Below are positions 44,608-56,995 of a DNA stretch of 59,500 nucleotides, in pieces. Under the pieces are notes generated by a model, which worked only from the letters and a program-made list of their open reading frames with translations, was not told where the DNA came from and did not search any database. Origin of the DNA: a virus; the UHGV virus genome UHGV-0209830; one strand, 5' to 3'. Numbering within the stretch: the stretch's first letter is position 1; each line of letters starts with the position of its first letter. A program made the position numbers and the translations under genes.

Positions 44608-44960
44608 CGACGCCCCCTTGCCGGATATCGACCTGCATTAGTATCCGGTGCAATAAAGCCGGTAGTGGGGCGAGTGAAAGCGAGATTAATCTTCTCGACC
44701 ATAGTGCGATAATTTTCCTGATAGTGGGCCAGGAGTTTTTCGGCGGCAATGATGGTTACTTTCCGGACGTAGCTTTCTGCTTCCTCCAGATTTCGCCAGT
44801 TTTTTTCGAGGGTAAACACAGGGACGGCCTCAAGCCCGGTCATGATGCCGAATACAACGACAGCATGACTGTTCTTAACACCAGCGGCGAAGGTTACGGT
44901 GTAACCATCCACCGTGAAGCGTCTTGATTCCGTGATTTGACTCTGCAAAGCACCCTCCAA
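44604..44960 (-). CDS. Hypothetical protein (118 aa)
   Basis: ORF track. Confidence 0.45.
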   Translation of the reverse strand: MEGALQSQITESRRFTVDGYTVTFAAGVKNSHAVVVFGIMTGLEAVPVFTLEKNWRNLEEAESYVRKVTIIAAEKLLAHYQENYRTMVEKINLAFTRPTTGFIAPDTNAGRYPARGRR

Positions 44961-50882: not shown

Positions 50883-51274
50883 TACCAGCGAGACAAACGA
50901 ACAACATGTTTCACTTTTGCGATCCACTTTCCGCGACAACTATTGATTACGGCCTGTGCCAGCTTCAAATTGGCTTCAAAATCAGCCTTACTACCATCTG
51001 ACTCCACCAGCATTCCGCCATCTATTTCTGGTAAACATAGATAATCCTGCTCAACCTGCAGCGGCATTGATGGCTCTCTGAATGGCGTTACTTGCTCTGC
51101 TTTCCAGCGAAAGCTAACCCTCATCCCCCTGGTGGTCATTACCAGATAGCCTGTTATAGTGCTTTTATGGCCCACATCAGTACGCGTGGCATTGCATGAC
51201 ACGATCTTACAGTTAGCGATAGACCACTCCATATTGGTGGCCTGTTGAGTGCTTAATTTGGTAGTCCCGTACAT
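50882..51274 (-). CDS. Hypothetical protein (130 aa)
   Basis: ORF track. Confidence 0.45.
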   Translation of the reverse strand: MYGTTKLSTQQATNMEWSIANCKIVSCNATRTDVGHKSTITGYLVMTTRGMRVSFRWKAEQVTPFREPSMPLQVEQDYLCLPEIDGGMLVESDGSKADFEANLKLAQAVINSCRGKWIAKVKHVVRLSRW

Positions 51275-51849
51275 CAGAAAGCCTCCCAGTCAGTCGCGAT
51301 AATATCCACACCAGTTGCAAACCAGTCTGTCTGCGCCTGTAAATCACCATTCATCATTACCAGGCGAGGCATCACCATCACATCGCACCCTTCCACAATA
51401 TCGAATGCCTCTTCCGGCAAGAATTCGAAGAGCTTTTCTTTGCTGCCAATGCTGCCACGGAACATCGATATATAGCTCCCTTTAGGCCATGATGTCCGCC
51501 GGGCATCAAGCCCTTTCATCATCCAGTAAAAAGCCGAGGAAAAAGGGATATTCTTTTTGCCAATGATTACATTATTCGCTTCTGTGTACTTCAGGAACTT
51601 AACTAACCTTACCATTGACTCGGATAACGCAACGTATGGCTCATGATTGATTGCTGACACGCTTACACCGTGCAATCCAACGCTTACCACTGTCATATCG
51701 CCGCTCTGTGCGGTTTCGATATTGACGCCTTTGCGAACTAATGAGGCGTAAAGTTCCTCTCGCTTTTGGGTCCAGCGTTCCCGCTTCCCTATGAAGTCAC
51801 TCAAAATGAGATCTTCTTCTGCATATGCGTTATCGTTCGCCATTAACAT
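51274..51849 (-). CDS. Hypothetical protein (191 aa)
   Basis: ORF track; strong RBS aaaaaggag. Confidence 0.5.
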   Translation of the reverse strand: MLMANDNAYAEEDLILSDFIGKRERWTQKREELYASLVRKGVNIETAQSGDMTVVSVGLHGVSVSAINHEPYVALSESMVRLVKFLKYTEANNVIIGKKNIPFSSAFYWMMKGLDARRTSWPKGSYISMFRGSIGSKEKLFEFLPEEAFDIVEGCDVMVMPRLVMMNGDLQAQTDWFATGVDIIATDWEAF

Positions 51850-51984: not shown

Positions 51985-52302
51985 TGCCAGGTTAGCCACT
52001 CCTGGCGACGTCACTTATCAGAACGTAGTGAATGAAAATGGCTTCGTCACGAGCGCATAGCCGCAATTACCACAACGGAAACGGCGCTCGCGTTAATTAA
52101 ACGCCTTTTCCTGTTGTGCGCCGTACTCTTCCGGCTGTCACACCGAATCGCCAGGGTGGTGAGTCCTCGGTCCGACGATATGAACGGGGCTTGCACATTC
52201 CGGCTACCTGGTTTGTTGCCTGAGCAAGGGGAAAAGGTAACCCCTTTAACGTCACCAGACCGCTAACGACGCATGTGCCATACGCCGTGTTACAACCAAA
52301 TA

Positions 52303-52378
52303 TGGTGGCCCCTACCGGACTTGAACCGGTGACCGTGCGATTATGAGTCGCCAGCTCTAACCACTGAGCTAAAGGGCC
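52303..52378 (-). tRNA. tRNA with CAT anticodon, tRNA-Ile2 (lysidine) type
   Basis: 76 nt cloverleaf with encoded CCA; anticodon loop CTCATAA; near-identical to recalled E. coli ileX; Met not excluded. Confidence 0.8.
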
Positions 52379-52532
52379 AGATTACTGTTAATTCCGCTTA
52401 CGCTTTTTGCCAGGACCGCGTAAGGCTTTTGCTGCTTGCTCGACCCCATATGCAACCACCAGCAGAAATAAAAATGTCCACCAAGGGTTCTTGTCGGCAA
52501 ACGTCCAAAATTCCATCATGTTCTCTATTTGG

Positions 52533-53360
52533 TTATTTCACCGGAACAAACGGTACAGCGGTATTACTGGTCATATACTGCGGTAGCGTTCCGTTCCATT
52601 TGTTGATCGCTTCCAACTCCATAACGCCGGGGTTCTGGCGCAGAGCTTCACCGCGTAAACGAATGGCATCAGCTTCAGCCTGGGCTTTTGTGCGAATGGC
52701 ATCGGCCTGTCCGGCAGCTTCTGCGCGCAGCATGTTGGCTTCTGCTTCGCGTTGCTTGACTTCCTGCTCGCGTTGCAGAGTTTTCTGGTTCGCCGTGACT
52801 TTGGCATTAATGCTGTCGATAACGGTTGGCGGGTACTCCGGCTTGCCCACATATGAGAGGCTCATTACCTGAATACCGATGGGCGTCATTTCTTCCTGGA
52901 TGTCTTTAAGAGCTGCATCCAGTAGTTCAGACTTGCCACCGTCGATAAATTTGTCGGTGGTCATTTTGCTGGCCAGTCGGTTAAGTGCGTCGGCAATCTT
53001 CTGGCGCAGGTCGGTGTCGGTAATGTCATCCACGCCTTTGCGGTAGGTCTGAAATACAGTTGTGACTTTTGCCGGATCAACCTTGTAAGCTACACCAATG
53101 TGGTAACCAATTGTTGTCCCGTCGCTCATTTGGAAGCTGAACGGATCATCATAGGTCTTCATTTGCTTAAAGGTCGGGAAGATATAAACTTCTGTGTTCC
53201 AGCCTGTCCAGTAGCGACCAACGCCAACTACTTCGCCGACACCTTTATCATCCCCCAGCTTATTTACTTTGATCCCTACATTGCCTGGTTCTACCCGGTC
53301 GCATCCGGTCAGACATAAAGAACCAAAAATAATCGCTGCACTAATCAACGTTTTTTTCAT
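52533..53360 (-). CDS. SPFH/band-7 domain lipoprotein
   Basis: Lipobox LTGC signal; SPFH-like core followed by A/E/Q-rich coiled coil. Confidence 0.55.
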   Translation of the reverse strand: MKKTLISAAIIFGSLCLTGCDRVEPGNVGIKVNKLGDDKGVGEVVGVGRYWTGWNTEVYIFPTFKQMKTYDDPFSFQMSDGTTIGYHIGVAYKVDPAKVTTVFQTYRKGVDDITDTDLRQKIADALNRLASKMTTDKFIDGGKSELLDAALKDIQEEMTPIGIQVMSLSYVGKPEYPPTVIDSINAKVTANQKTLQREQEVKQREAEANMLRAEAAGQADAIRTKAQAEADAIRLRGEALRQNPGVMELEAINKWNGTLPQYMTSNTAVPFVPVK

Positions 53361-53578
53361 TAATCAATTTCCTGGATTTTTTTGCGAAAAAAGACTACTG
53401 CAAAAGCCGGGTAAATGAGCGCGAGAAGGACTCCCAACAATACAAGTATTGTGCTGTCAGATGAGATCATATTTGGCAAAAGCCAAACATACAGAACCAT
53501 TGACACAATCAAACAGAGGACGACATAAATATATAGCCGCACCCATAGCGTTCGACATTTGTTCGGATTGTTCTGCAT
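53360..53578 (-). CDS. Small two-TM membrane protein (72 aa)
   Basis: ORF track; stop overlaps start of SPFH gene. Confidence 0.45.
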   Translation of the reverse strand: MQNNPNKCRTLWVRLYIYVVLCLIVSMVLYVWLLPNMISSDSTILVLLGVLLALIYPAFAVVFFRKKIQEID

Positions 53579-53618
53579 CCTCTCACTCCATTGTTTAACG
53601 AATAAAAAAGCTGCGGTG

Positions 53619-53633
53619 CCTGGTGCCTCCAGG
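53619..53633. other. Conserved-loop hairpin, copy B (cctgg-tgcct-ccagg)
   Basis: Same loop as copies A and C, stem covaries; about 45 bp upstream of small membrane gene. Confidence 0.5.
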
Positions 53634-53841
53634 TGACGTTAACCAGTTAACAATTAACGCCGGGATGTTTGATTTAACCACTAATAAGGATTGTTTTAAC
53701 TGTTCCGCGTGCGCTTAGCCGCATTCACCGCAATGGTAAGAGCACTTGGCTGGCTGGGCGGCGATGACGCCTGTACGCATTTGGTGATCCGGTTCTGCTT
53801 CCGGCATTCGCTTAATTAGCCAAATACTCTTAACGTTGCGC

Positions 53842-53928
53842 TGGCGGAGAGTAATGGAATCGAACCATCATCGCTTGCGCAATGGGACGGTTTTCAAGAC
53901 CGCTTGAGCACCATGCTCCCTACTCTCC
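53842..53928 (-). tRNA. Atypical type-II tRNA-like gene with TGA anticodon (tRNA-Ser(UGA)-like)
   Basis: 87 nt; acceptor GGAGAGT/ACTCTCC, G discriminator, CCA, T-loop TTCGATT, anticodon loop CTTGAAA; D-arm shortened and variable arm irregular. Confidence 0.45.
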
Positions 53929-54393
53929 GGCCGTTGTGGTGGCCGGTACTGAATCTCCGGCATACGGTGCAGCCAATTAGGACTACGGACGATCACCGCT
54001 CGCGAAAGGGAAGATTTGCGGCCGCATTTCCCTAACATCCAAGAAAGCTATCGCATCAGTCTGCGAATCCACCACAACGTTGAGAACACTGGTTGTCACG
54101 CTGCCTCGCGACCTTTATTCATAGATTGGGATATGACCCCGTTACGCCAATGTTCTCAACGTTGTAGTGCCGGTTACGGTTCCGGCCAGGCTTCTTCCTC
54201 AACGGGGTGTTCTCCATACGGACTACCGTTTATTGGTCGTTCCTGCGGTTTATGTTGTGAAGCCAGATGCTTATCTTCTGGTTGCTTCAAAGAGCTGCAC
54301 TTCATCACAACGGTAAGGGTACTTCGTAGGGATTCGAACCCTCTGCCAAGCTCGGCGATCTCCGACGTCGCAAAATACCCTTACCTGTTGTGT

Positions 54394-54469
54394 TGGTGCC
54401 GGTTAACGGACTCGAACCGCTGACATCCTGCTTACAAGGCAGGCGCTCTACCAACTGAGCTAAACCGGC
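54394..54469 (-). tRNA. tRNA-Thr (TGT anticodon)
   Basis: 76 nt cloverleaf, anticodon loop CTTGTAA, T-loop TTCGAGT, encoded CCA. Confidence 0.8.
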
Positions 54470-54471
54470 AT

Positions 54472-54547
54472 TGGCGATGGTGGATGGATTTGAACCATCG
54501 ACCCGTTGATTAACAGTCAACCGCTCTAACCGCTGAGCTACACCATC
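54472..54547 (-). tRNA. tRNA-Asn (GTT anticodon)
   Basis: 76 nt cloverleaf, anticodon loop CTGTTAA, T-loop TTCAAAT, encoded CCA. Confidence 0.8.
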
Positions 54548-55257
54548 ACTTGCCGGGTACGTCTCCGGCGAGGGCTTCCACCTCCGTATGCTTTTCGGCG
54601 CACCGCGCCCTGGCTGCAATTCGGTAACAGGGGATGCATAACCCTGGCTTCCAGCGTGATTAGCGCCTTCAGCATGACGGGATATACCCGTTGCAAGACA
54701 TTATCCCAGAAAGCCATTAACCAATGGCTGTTACGCGGGAGGGACGTAACAGGTAAGGGCGCTGACCAGAAAGACCTGACCCTTCTCATTCATCTGGTTA
54801 ATCACACCAGCGCCCTTGCCTGTTATGCCTCCCCGTTCCCTAATACACAGACGGGGACACTCTGCGGTCGATTTTTTGACGGGGGACGACTCATACCCCG
54901 TGGCGTCAGGCTTCTTAGGCCGCTACCATCATCAGATCATCGTTTGCATTTACTTTAATGGTCGGTTTCTAAACCGCCGCAAAGTCGCTAACCATGACGA
55001 AAACCCTAAAAAAGCCCACCCGAAGATGGGCAAATACGCTACGTATCACACAAGAAAGAAGCCGACTGCCTGAACTGGATTCACTTTCAAATGCCCGCTG
55101 AAAGGGATCACAAGTCGGCTTCTTTCTTGATGCGGCACTCTCTCCGCCCGTCACCGCTCTGTCTCGGTTGTCGCGTTTGCCACGCCAGCCATAACGAGGT
55201 TTAAAGTCTTTGCACGTTCCCATCACTCGACTGCCGTCTGAGGCTGTTCGTTGCAGC

Positions 55258-55272
55258 GGGGGTGCCTCCCCC
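55258..55272. other. Conserved-loop hairpin, copy C (ggggg-tgcct-ccccc)
   Basis: Same loop, third stem variant. Confidence 0.5.
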
Positions 55273-55755
55273 TGGGGATATCCCCGGCCTTACCCCATTC
55301 TTTCAAGACACAATGCAAGGCCACATCCGCATAGGTGCATTACCGCAACATTAAGGAGGCATAGGGCGGTTACCTTTTGCCCTGAGTCTCCTTAATGTTG
55401 AAGATGTGCATTGATGATTAGATGCAGCATGTACCGTTACTCTCTGCCGGACCATCATCAATGAACACCTTAAAAAGACCTTCCGTGGCTCAACATGGAC
55501 TGTCGTTTACTCCGCAAAGTGCTCTCTCTGAAACCACTTTCCGCACTAAACCTGCTGAACTTTGGCCTGCACGGTGCCAAAGCGTGCTCTTGCATTGCTA
55601 TACTTTTCTAACGCTTTAATTTGTTAAATGCTGGTGGGCGAACAATAACCAATAAGTGACTATCAAGCCCAGCAAGCGAAACGTGGGTGCCGCCCACCAG
55701 CAAGGAAAATTCTATGTTAAGTTACCTTCACAATCAATACGTTCGAATCGTAATT

Positions 55756-55774
55756 TTAGATTTCTAACACATTA
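55756..55774. promoter_or_regulatory. Operator-like motif copy at upstream edge of the RNA island
   Basis: ttagatttctaacacatta. Confidence 0.4.
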
Positions 55775-56995
55775 TTTCCCGTAAAGATCTTCTACACCCC
55801 CATTCTTCTTATCCCATTCGTTCGCCCATACCCGGCAAGCGTCAATGATTTCCTGACGACGATCTCCTTGCATGAACGGAATGCTTTCATGGAAACAGCT
55901 TGGAATGCAGGCCACACTGAATACAGTATCAAACTCCGTCTGCTTGATTGCCTCCAGCGTCTCCGGACGCATTTTTAATTCATCGATTGGCGCATCCTTA
56001 GAGTCCATAATCCGGCGATATAAGCGCGGAAAATCCGTCTCCAGGTACGCCATAATTTTATCTGCGAGACATTCGTCTATGTCGGTATTCCAGTCCTTTT
56101 CGAAGCCCGGCAGGCGATAGTAAAGCGGCGTTCCCCATACCGATGGGATCACATCCATCGTTAACAGGCGATTGGTTCTGATTTGTTGATGGTAATTAGC
56201 CGTCAGCAGTGCTTCGCCACGCTGCCCAGTTTCCGCAACCAGGCCGTGCGGATACTCATGGATGTAGGCAATGGCATCCCGCCCATCATACATAAGTGGA
56301 AATGTCTCTGGTCTTTGTCCCATGCCACAAGCACGGTTCAGATCGTGACCAAGCTGTGAGCACTCTCGCTTTAATGTTTCGATAATGCTCTGTGCTGTAG
56401 CCAACTTTTTACGCAGTGTGACGCCTTCGCCTTGATAATCAATGCATTGCTGATTGAGCTTGGTTAAACGCTCTTTTAGTTCCCGGCGCTCTCTTTTCAG
56501 CGTGCGGTTATCCTTCTCCGCAACATCCAGCCGCTTTGTCAGGCTGGGCGGATAGTCTTTTTTGTAACGGTTCAAATCGGCTTCGGCAGATTTACGCAGT
56601 GTATTTGCCTGTTCAAGACGCGCTTCCAGATTGCCGATCTCATTACGCATATTCACGGCAAATTGATTAACTGCATCACCCAGGCTTTCAACTGTCGCTG
56701 ATACGCCTGTGACTTGTGAAAAACGGATCAAGCCATCATTAACGGCTTGTTGGTATTCCTCAAACTGATCCACCAGCTTATTGTAATCAACTGCCCCATC
56801 ATCAAGCAGCTTGTTGATTTCCGCCACCAGGTTATCTGTAGTGGCAATGACACTCTCGTGCAGTCGCTTTGACAGGTCATCACCCGGATTCCGTTTCTGT
56901 ATAAGAGCGATTTGTGTGCGCAGCGTTTCAATTGCTGTCGAGATAATTTCCAGATTAGAAGTATCAGTGTGTTGACTCATTGCTGTTCCCGTCAC
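55772..56995 (-). CDS. Hypothetical protein with coiled coil (407 aa)
   Basis: ORF track; operator-like motif just upstream. Confidence 0.55.
   Translation of the reverse strand: MTGTAMSQHTDTSNLEIISTAIETLRTQIALIQKRNPGDDLSKRLHESVIATTDNLVAEINKLLDDGAVDYNKLVDQFEEYQQAVNDGLIRFSQVTGVSATVESLGDAVNQFAVNMRNEIGNLEARLEQANTLRKSAEADLNRYKKDYPPSLTKRLDVAEKDNRTLKRERRELKERLTKLNQQCIDYQGEGVTLRKKLATAQSIIETLKRECSQLGHDLNRACGMGQRPETFPLMYDGRDAIAYIHEYPHGLVAETGQRGEALLTANYHQQIRTNRLLTMDVIPSVWGTPLYYRLPGFEKDWNTDIDECLADKIMAYLETDFPRLYRRIMDSKDAPIDELKMRPETLEAIKQTEFDTVFSVACIPSCFHESIPFMQGDRRQEIIDACRVWANEWDKKNGGVEDLYGK

Follow-up and report, generated by a model that had tools for sequence, protein, structure and literature searches.

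Covariance searches for tRNASec have recovered, as false positives, transfer RNAs in which the 12 bp of the acceptor/T branch are divided 8/4 or 9/3 (Mukai et al. 2017, Nucleic Acids Res 45:2776; PMC5389517). Their variable arms are long, position 73 is G or U, and their compact D-arms resemble those of tRNASec; (8/4) tRNASer have been reported in bacteriophages, proteobacteria and rumen bacteria (PMC5389517). In E. coli, one (8/4) allo-tRNA with serine identity was shown to be processed and serylated and to reach the ribosomes (PMC5389517). Among coliphages, D6 (MF356679) annotates a tRNA-Ser gene, and the serine tRNA gene of rV5 (trnS, NC_011041) was found by ARAGORN only and missed by tRNAscan (PMC3606486). 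Phage P1 carries Asn, Thr and Ile tRNAs only (trnA, trnT and trnI, the last for Ile2, in the region of the ban operon) and no tRNA-Ser(UGA). Our literature search on D6 and P1-like tRNAs returned nothing specific, and the records of D6, rV5, P7 and the PGAP-annotated plasmids carry no comment on an 8/4 fold. Both the gene, which is annotated in D6, rV5 and RefSeq, and the 8/4 structural class, which is published, are already known; what we add is an explicit 8/4 assignment of a widespread coliphage gene, with support from covariation among its relatives.

The window that we analysed is the whole stretch of 59,500 nucleotides. ARAGORN called four tRNA genes in it, all on the minus strand, for Asn(GUU), Thr(UGU), Ser(UGA) and a CAU anticodon:

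54394 to 54547, minus strand: canonical tRNA-Thr(UGU) (54394-54469) and tRNA-Asn(GUU) (54472-54547), upstream of the tRNA-Ser gene on the same strand (ARAGORN; RF00005, 74.9 and 74.5 bits).
53842 to 53928, minus strand: tRNA-Ser(UGA) gene, 87 nt including the encoded CCA (53844-53842) and the discriminator G (53845) (ARAGORN; RF01852 score; identical sequence labelled tRNA-Ser in RefSeq plasmids).
52303 to 52378, minus strand: tRNA with a CAU anticodon, downstream on the same strand, whose P1 homologue is annotated tRNA-Ile2 (ileX-like) (ARAGORN, Rfam, P1 annotation).

Read as the reverse complement, the 87-nt gene is GGAGAGUAGGGAGCAUGGUGCUCAAGCGGUCUUGAAAACCGUCCCAUUGCGCAAGCGAUGAUGGUUCGAUUCCAUUACUCUCCGCCA. 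An initial annotation had placed a tRNA-Ser(UGA)-like gene at 53842-53928 without stating its strand and had named ARAGORN scoring as a check; ARAGORN indeed called tRNA-Ser with anticodon tga at the same coordinates, on the minus strand. The G discriminator, encoded CCA, T-loop, UGA anticodon loop and 4-bp D-stem with a 5-nt loop that it had described could all be seen in the reverse complement, together with the acceptor strands GGAGAGU/ACUCUCC. The gene thus has many canonical traits (a four-arm cloverleaf, GG in the D-loop, a T-loop of the UUCGAUU type, a 7-nt anticodon loop with U33 and a 3′ CCA), but it lacks U8 and the 7/5 division between acceptor and T-stem, position 8 being A or G in 30 of the 30 family sequences described below.

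Ordinary tRNA models respond poorly to this gene. When the window was searched at the gathering score (29 bits), the general Rfam tRNA model RF00005 did not report it, while the three neighbouring tRNAs scored 65-75 bits. The best Rfam model, in a search of 401 nt at an E-value threshold, was that of tRNA-Sec (RF01852, a member of the same clan as tRNA), with 46.6 bits and an E-value of 2e-8, which is 0.4 bit below its gathering score of 47. Missing both gathering scores fits the failures of tRNAscan on the rV5 and D6 homologues; in D6, tRNAscan-SE left the copy without an amino-acid assignment. The single-sequence fold had an MFE z-score of -2.97, and the identical 87-nt gene occurs in hundreds of public records. 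The feature is real, beyond chance, and atypical to ordinary tRNA models. We also considered an artefact of coding sequence, which we rejected: the overlapping ORFs (53868-54038 on the minus strand, 56 aa, and 53882-53980 on the plus strand, 32 aa) are short and unsupported, and D6 and P7 annotate no CDS there.

The arms of the molecule, as we read them, are as follows:

53921 to 53928, minus strand: 5′ strand of an 8-bp acceptor stem (GGAGAGUA), pairing with 53846-53853 (UACUCUCC), the eighth pair being A8-U at 53853 (covariation, RNAalifold).
53906 to 53918, minus strand: D-arm, with a 4-bp stem GAGC/GCUC (53918-53915 with 53909-53906) and a 5-nt loop AUGGU that holds the GG dinucleotide (compensatory changes).
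53887 to 53903, minus strand: anticodon arm, with a 5-bp stem GCGGU/ACCGU, loop CUUGAAA and anticodon UGA at 53896-53894 (ARAGORN, sequence, alignment).
53869 to 53886, minus strand: long variable arm, with two unpaired C, a 6-bp stem CAUUGC/GCGAUG and a GCAA tetraloop, directly adjoining the T-stem (RNAfold of V regions, covariation).
53854 to 53868, minus strand: T-arm, with a 4-bp stem AUGG/CCAU and loop UUCGAUU (alignment, RNAalifold; three of the four pairs changed on both sides).

Relatives of the gene were collected with two pattern scans of IMG/VR, in which about three quarters of the matches were due to chance (the pattern had 14 specified bases) and were removed by a filter for T-loop and acceptor pairing. 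Two further IMG/VR scans required a base other than A at position 8, and together with phage records the set came to 30 distinct sequences. Because G9, G11, C14, AUGG, AAGC and a portion of the anticodon arm were prescribed by the search patterns, their invariance is built in; variation was allowed in the acceptor stem, at position 8, in the inner D-stem pairs and in the variable arm and T-arm. The sequences come from P1-like and other coliphage contigs, rV5, the T5-like Klebsiella phage Sugarland, Pseudomonas phage Pyxpy02 and diverse metagenomic phages.

When the cloverleaf was laid over an alignment of 27 of these sequences, 95.1% of cells were paired, against 82.4% in shuffles, and 11 of the 22 pairs had changed on both sides; none of 500 shuffles reached the observed values, and control structures slid by 1-3 columns paired 40-60% of cells. 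The small D-arm is kept in at least 30 distinct relatives with many compensatory changes. At its two inner stem pairs both bases have changed in compensation in 13 and 11 of the 27 sequences, respectively, and, for example, the GAGC/GCUC of the window stands as GCUC/GAGC in Sugarland. The UGA anticodon, G73 and CCA are conserved in the family, with the exception of an AGA anticodon in Pyxpy02, and most relatives share the discriminator G of the window. Where phages have arrays of 17-22 tRNAs, the sole tRNA-Ser(UGA) is a member of this family (contigs L045, L164, L146, L097 and L014), which is hard to reconcile with a decoy or a pseudogene; the other Ser isoacceptors in large phage arrays are heterogeneous. 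Some arrays that hold an 8/4 tRNA-Ser also contain odd tRNA-like genes, to which ARAGORN gave 4-base or 2-base anticodons (rV5, L004, 1690-1788; IMG/VR contig L151, 1741-1830; L097, 5245-5320); they are perhaps further non-canonical tRNAs, perhaps miscalls.

The initial annotation had left open a degenerate gene or a decoy, next to a functional tRNA. A non-functional relic, or a tRNA-like RNA with a role outside translation (a decoy, a processing signal of the operon transcript or a recombination hotspot), would fit the poor scores with general tRNA models, the position of the gene where P1-like, other plasmid and rV5-like genomes meet in mosaic joints, and the existence of a D6 variant that breaks D-stem pair C12-U23 and of RefSeq variants typed tRNA-OTHER. 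However, the four stems and the variable arm are kept by compensatory changes and the anticodon, G73 and CCA are conserved, which is not expected of a relic, and the gene is the only one for Ser(UGA) in near-complete phage tRNA sets. We therefore consider a relic or a non-translational RNA very improbable, and the family-wide compensatory conservation, which contradicts the degenerate-gene option, marks the tRNA-Ser(UGA) as belonging to a conserved family; the decoy option gained no support.

The arms listed above assume an 8/4 division of the acceptor/T branch. The same sequence could be drawn as a canonical 7/5 tRNASer with a weak core, that is, as a divergent class II tRNA with a 7-bp acceptor stem, a 5-bp T-stem closed by G49-U65 and an unpaired A8 in the place of U8. 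Such a structure pairs 94.6% of cells, with G-U or G-C at 49:65 in 27 of the 30 sequences, and the standard cloverleaf model of ARAGORN calls the gene as tRNA-Ser. However, positions 8, 49 and 65 behave otherwise (pair 8:65 in the tRNA numbering scheme is A8-U76 in gene numbering). Position 8 is A in 25 of the 30 distinct sequences and G in 5, and U8 is missing family-wide. Its partner, the base immediately 3′ of the 4-bp T-stem, gives A-U in 25, G-C in 4 and G-U in 1, so the pair is broken in none of the 30, and C65 occurs only together with G8. In contrast, the 49:65 pair, which would be the fifth T-stem pair of a 7/5 fold, is G-U in 24 sequences, G-C in 3 and broken (A-C or C-U) in 3. In those three, base 49 stays Watson-Crick with the 5′ base of the variable arm (U-A in L138, G-C in L172 and L233), and the outermost variable-arm pair, when base 49 is included, is C-G in 25, G-C in 2 and U-A in 1. 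RNAalifold, working from the alignment alone, chose eight acceptor pairs and four T-stem pairs, which leaves the branch at the normal total of 12 bp.

We thus consider the 8/4 fold of the tRNA-Ser(UGA) very likely and the 7/5 fold unlikely. Our confidence stops short of certainty because the independent events that decide between them are few (at least two switches from A-U to G-C at 8:65 and three changes at position 49). Two statements of the initial annotation change accordingly. It had called the acceptor stem canonical: the seven pairs are there, but the stem is better read as 8 bp with A8-U76 added. It had also called the variable arm irregular, whereas assigning base 49 to this arm turns it into the regular 6-bp stem closed by a GCAA tetraloop; in the close relatives L037, an E. 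coli variant, and L125, the loop-closing pair of this arm is compensated from C-G to U-A (RNAfold of V regions). In the remaining arms, a G10/A25 mismatch holds the D-stem of the window at 4 bp, whereas Sugarland-type relatives with U10-A25 have 5 bp and a tetraloop AUGG. A sixth anticodon-stem pair would be A-C, a mismatch in the RF01852 alignment, and this stem is 5 bp long.

With this fold the phage gene resembles the (8/4) tRNASer class in having a 12-bp branch split 8+4, a serine anticodon, and a long variable arm and G73, which are SerRS identity features, as well as in a compact D-arm with a pyrimidine after GG (Y20; loop AUGGU here), in its occurrence in phage tRNA clusters and in a tRNASec-model score just below threshold. 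It differs from the allo-tRNAs in its 5-bp anticodon stem, where theirs is extended, and partly in its D-stem, which is 4 bp with a 5-nt loop in the window and 5 bp with a tetraloop in Sugarland-type relatives, where theirs is long with a tetraloop. It probably belongs to the published 8/4 tRNASer class. The best Rfam match would by itself suggest a selenocysteine-type, selC-like tRNA, and the RF01852 score close to gathering, the compact D-arm, the long variable arm and the long acceptor stem go with that suggestion. However, the anticodon is UGA, which reads UCA, and not UCA, which reads UGA; the branch has 12 bp and not 13, the D-stem 4 bp and not 6; and tRNAs of this kind have been reported as false positives of tRNASec searches (PMC5389517). 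We give a selC-like identity practically no chance, and tRNASec identity is ruled out by the UGA anticodon, the 12-bp branch and the short D-stem.

The genomic setting of the gene is that of a mosaic. Of the surrounding 24.5 kb, half aligns at 96% identity with phage D6, its closest match, and P1-like sequence is found in other parts. Between 53612 and about 54698, identity is 98.3% with D6 and 94.9% with P7; positions 54054-54691 match P1 at 97.5%. Judging from these identities, the window is around the tRNA-Ser gene a D6/P7-like relative of P1, and not P1. Two segments next to the gene can be distinguished:

53745 to 54053, no strand: 309-bp segment with the tRNA-Ser gene, without counterpart in P1, where its place is taken by upl and the first bases of plp; D6 and P7 both have the segment (blastn against the P1, P7 and D6 loci; annotations).
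53753 to 53817, no strand: 65-nt flank just 3′ of the tRNA-Ser gene, matching lambda 44867-44931 at 98.5% identity; in rV5-like phages, trnS is likewise followed by such a sequence, about 83% identical (sequence comparison).

The lambda stretch, taken from a record without annotation, lies in the late-operon leader between Q and S, and the 65-nt flank may be a conserved flank or the recombination joint of a mobile tRNA cassette. As to the P1 tRNA set, the initial annotation gave it correctly. The novelty that its comparison with P1 implied is not borne out, the window being D6/P7-like here and the gene being already annotated in D6 and in RefSeq plasmids.

The P1 tRNAs (Asn, Thr and Ile2) agree with those of the window in locus and orientation, the Thr and Asn genes being homologous at 97% identity, and the two sets share a proposed role in serving A-ending codons that the phage over-uses. 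P1 differs from the window in having upl in the place of the tRNA-Ser segment, tciA/B where the window has a gene for an SPFH-domain protein, and P1-type C1 operators. D6 and P7 resemble the window in having the tRNA-Ser beside tRNA-Thr and tRNA-Asn. P7 carries the gene (99.8% identity over 401 nt) without annotation. The D6 copy (L001, 2731-2817) differs by 1 nt, a C for A at position 12, which breaks the D-stem pair (C12-U23), and a few RefSeq variants are typed tRNA-OTHER; some copies of the gene may be drifting.

In complete E. coli genomes, the 87-nt gene was found in 331 of 5426, and 334 of its 336 places were on plasmids. Among the matching E. coli records, 218 of 335 are at least 99% identical, and the PGAP label of the gene is tRNA-Ser. 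The tRNA-Ser genes of D6, rV5 and the E. coli plasmids are the same gene, with 100% identity in many RefSeq plasmids, but their neighbours differ. In rV5 these are Arg/Tyr on one side and Thr/Met/Pro on the other, while plasmids of about 95-110 kb have the order Asn-Tyr-Thr-Ser; in two of these, of 110 kb and 95 kb, the cluster lies between a DNA ligase gene and Gp49/GrxA/tyrosine-recombinase genes. Both are presumably SSU5/pHCM2-type phage-plasmids. In rV5 (trnS) and its relatives the homologue is about 83% identical, including 89 nt of 3′ flank. Taken as genome comparisons, these occurrences indicate that the tRNA-Ser gene sits on a small mobile cassette common to P1/D6/P7-type phage-plasmids, other E. 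coli plasmids and rV5-like phages.

The rare 8/4 architecture, so far discussed mostly for metagenomic and soil-bacterial sequences, would thus be found in a tRNA of a textbook phage group (P1, P7, D6 and plasmid relatives, about 6% of complete E. coli genomes). Such phages make 8/4 tRNAs accessible to E. coli genetics, so that one can ask if they become charged and take part in translation, what purpose their shape serves and why standard finders under-call them. For the annotation of phage tRNAs it recommends more than one tool, as the gene is still without annotation in P7 and was missed in old tRNAscan runs. Nothing fundamental is changed by the finding.

Codon usage points to a role in translation. 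When 59 crude ORFs of the window (13,774 codons) were compared with 41 ORFs from a single 50-kb sample of E. coli K-12, UCA stood at 12.2 per 1000 codons against 5.2, a 2.3-fold enrichment, and ACA and AUA were enriched 2.6-fold and 4.5-fold, respectively. Three of the six most enriched codons are those read by the phage Ser(UGA), Thr(UGU) and CAU tRNAs; the remaining three encode Arg, and in some relatives a tRNA-Arg(UCU) belongs to the cluster. The initial annotation had suggested comparing UCA usage of phage late genes with that of the host, and the excess appears here over the 59 crude ORFs of the window. Its option of a functional serine tRNA for UCA is strengthened by this enrichment, by the compensatory changes, by the role as sole Ser(UGA) gene in large arrays and by the features shared with the serT gene of the host.

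The host serT sequence was matched in 5426 of 5426 E. coli genomes, at an identity of at least 99% in 5391 of 5428 records and 100% in chromosomes. The phage tRNA shares with it the anticodon loop CUUGAAA, which is identical, four of the five anticodon-stem pairs, the long variable arm, the acceptor pairs G1-C72, G2-C71 and A3-U70, G73 and CCA. However, E. coli serT has a canonical 7/5 fold with U8, a 10-nt D-loop and C11-G24, whereas the phage tRNA has a paired A8, a 5-nt D-loop and G11-C24, so that the whole D-arm and core differ. The exchange of C11-G24 for G11-C24 in the D-stem speaks against a full fit to SerRS, for which C11-G24 is a minor element.

We propose that the gene encodes a functional phage-borne tRNASer(UGA) with a non-canonical 8/4 cloverleaf, which raises the capacity for decoding UCA; on the data above we think this likely. 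The gene would be transcribed from the minus strand, in the same direction as the tRNA-Asn and tRNA-Thr upstream and the tRNA-Ile(CAU) downstream and together with these neighbours, and RNase P and 3′ processing would yield a CCA-ended RNA. Host SerRS could charge it by way of the long variable arm, G73 and the pairs G1-C72, G2-C71 and A3-U70, and delivery by EF-Tu would be possible because the acceptor/T branch is still 12 bp. The tRNA would then decode UCA and probably UCG and UCU, adding capacity for a codon that the phage uses about twice as often as its host, by the same logic as the tRNAs for ACA and AUA. It is most likely a SerRS-charged isoacceptor for UCA that works alongside the phage tRNAs for those two codons. 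P1 does without a tRNA-Ser(UGA), so any benefit must be dispensable.

Phage tRNAs have been reported to rescue infection from tRNA-targeting defences, and the gene might likewise supply a chargeable tRNASer that keeps UCN decoding going when the host tRNASer is cleaved, depleted or disabled in infection, with a non-canonical body (no U8, small D-arm, 8/4 branch) on which the enzyme directed at the host tRNA would act poorly. Conservation of so unusual a body in phage groups that are unrelated, and its movement among them as a cassette, would fit this idea, as would the location of the tRNA cluster in a variable accessory region beside a Tad2-like ORF (51274-51849). However, the anticodon loop is the same as in serT and four of the five stem pairs are shared, so a nuclease acting on the anticodon loop would probably cut both tRNAs; we know of no defence that targets tRNASer; and the match to codon usage already explains which tRNAs are carried. 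We regard such a counter-defence or back-up role as doubtful. Slightly less probable still is that the 8/4 body is an adaptation by which the tRNA escapes a factor, of the host or of a competitor, recognizing the canonical core (U8-A14, large D-loop), for example a tRNA nuclease, a modifier or a decay pathway, while staying good for SerRS, EF-Tu and the ribosome. If this were true, it would explain the spread of the cassette among P1-like and other phage-plasmids and rV5-like, T5-like and Pseudomonas phages, and the gene would be a portable, defence-resistant serine tRNA. The supply of a UCA-reading tRNASer(UGA) to phage translation remains our preferred reading.

Several features of the neighbourhood deserve mention. 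Just downstream of the tRNA-Ile(CAU), the ORF at 51274-51849 on the minus strand (191 aa) matches the Pfam family Tad2-like (Thoeris anti-defence 2-like) with an E-value of 1e-9; this candidate anti-defence gene and the tRNAs lie in one accessory region. Between the tRNA-Ile(CAU) and tRNA-Ser genes, positions 52533-53578 on the minus strand encode a 275-aa SPFH/Band 7 protein (E-value 8e-31) and a 72-aa ORF without a Pfam match; this region occupies the place of the TerB-like tciA/tciB of P1, P7 and D6, and the similarity to D6 and P7 starts at 53612.

Upstream of the tRNA-Asn gene there is a leader of about 1.2 kb (54548-55780, minus strand), in which D6 has no annotated genes. The corresponding part of P1 is annotated as dicF-like; here, Rfam searched by E-value over 54540-55800 returned sub-threshold noise only, and we rejected a DicF-like element in the leader. 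A promoter search of 52000-55600 found none. The sole sigma-70-like match, TTGATT-17-TAGAAT at 55737-55709, agrees at 9 of 12 positions, and between this promoter-like site and the tRNAs lies a strong hairpin followed by a T-run (GCCCATCTTCGGGTGGGC-TTTTTT, 55031-55008). A weak hairpin at 54066-54051 is found upstream of the tRNA-Ser gene on the same strand. These two hairpins, and a search that gave no strong promoter near the gene, count against our preferred reading. Terminator-like hairpins were not clearly above chance.

The P1 C1 operator consensus, ATTGCTCTAATAAATTT, had no match with three or fewer mismatches in the whole window. We rejected the placement of the tRNAs in a C1-controlled ban operon, P1-type control being unsupported with no C1 operators in the window, and the absence of P1-type operators indicates an immunity specificity different from that of P1/P7 despite the shared ban-region tRNAs.

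Finally, the tRNA-Ser segment stands in the place of upl of P1 and of the initial 8 nt of plp, so that the plp start codon is missing. The body of plp follows at 97.5% identity from 54054 on, in an ORF (54016-54423, plus strand) that has a TTG start only and overlaps the tRNA-Thr gene on the opposite strand. Since D6 and P7 annotate no gene at 54016-54423, this ORF is probably a plp remnant.
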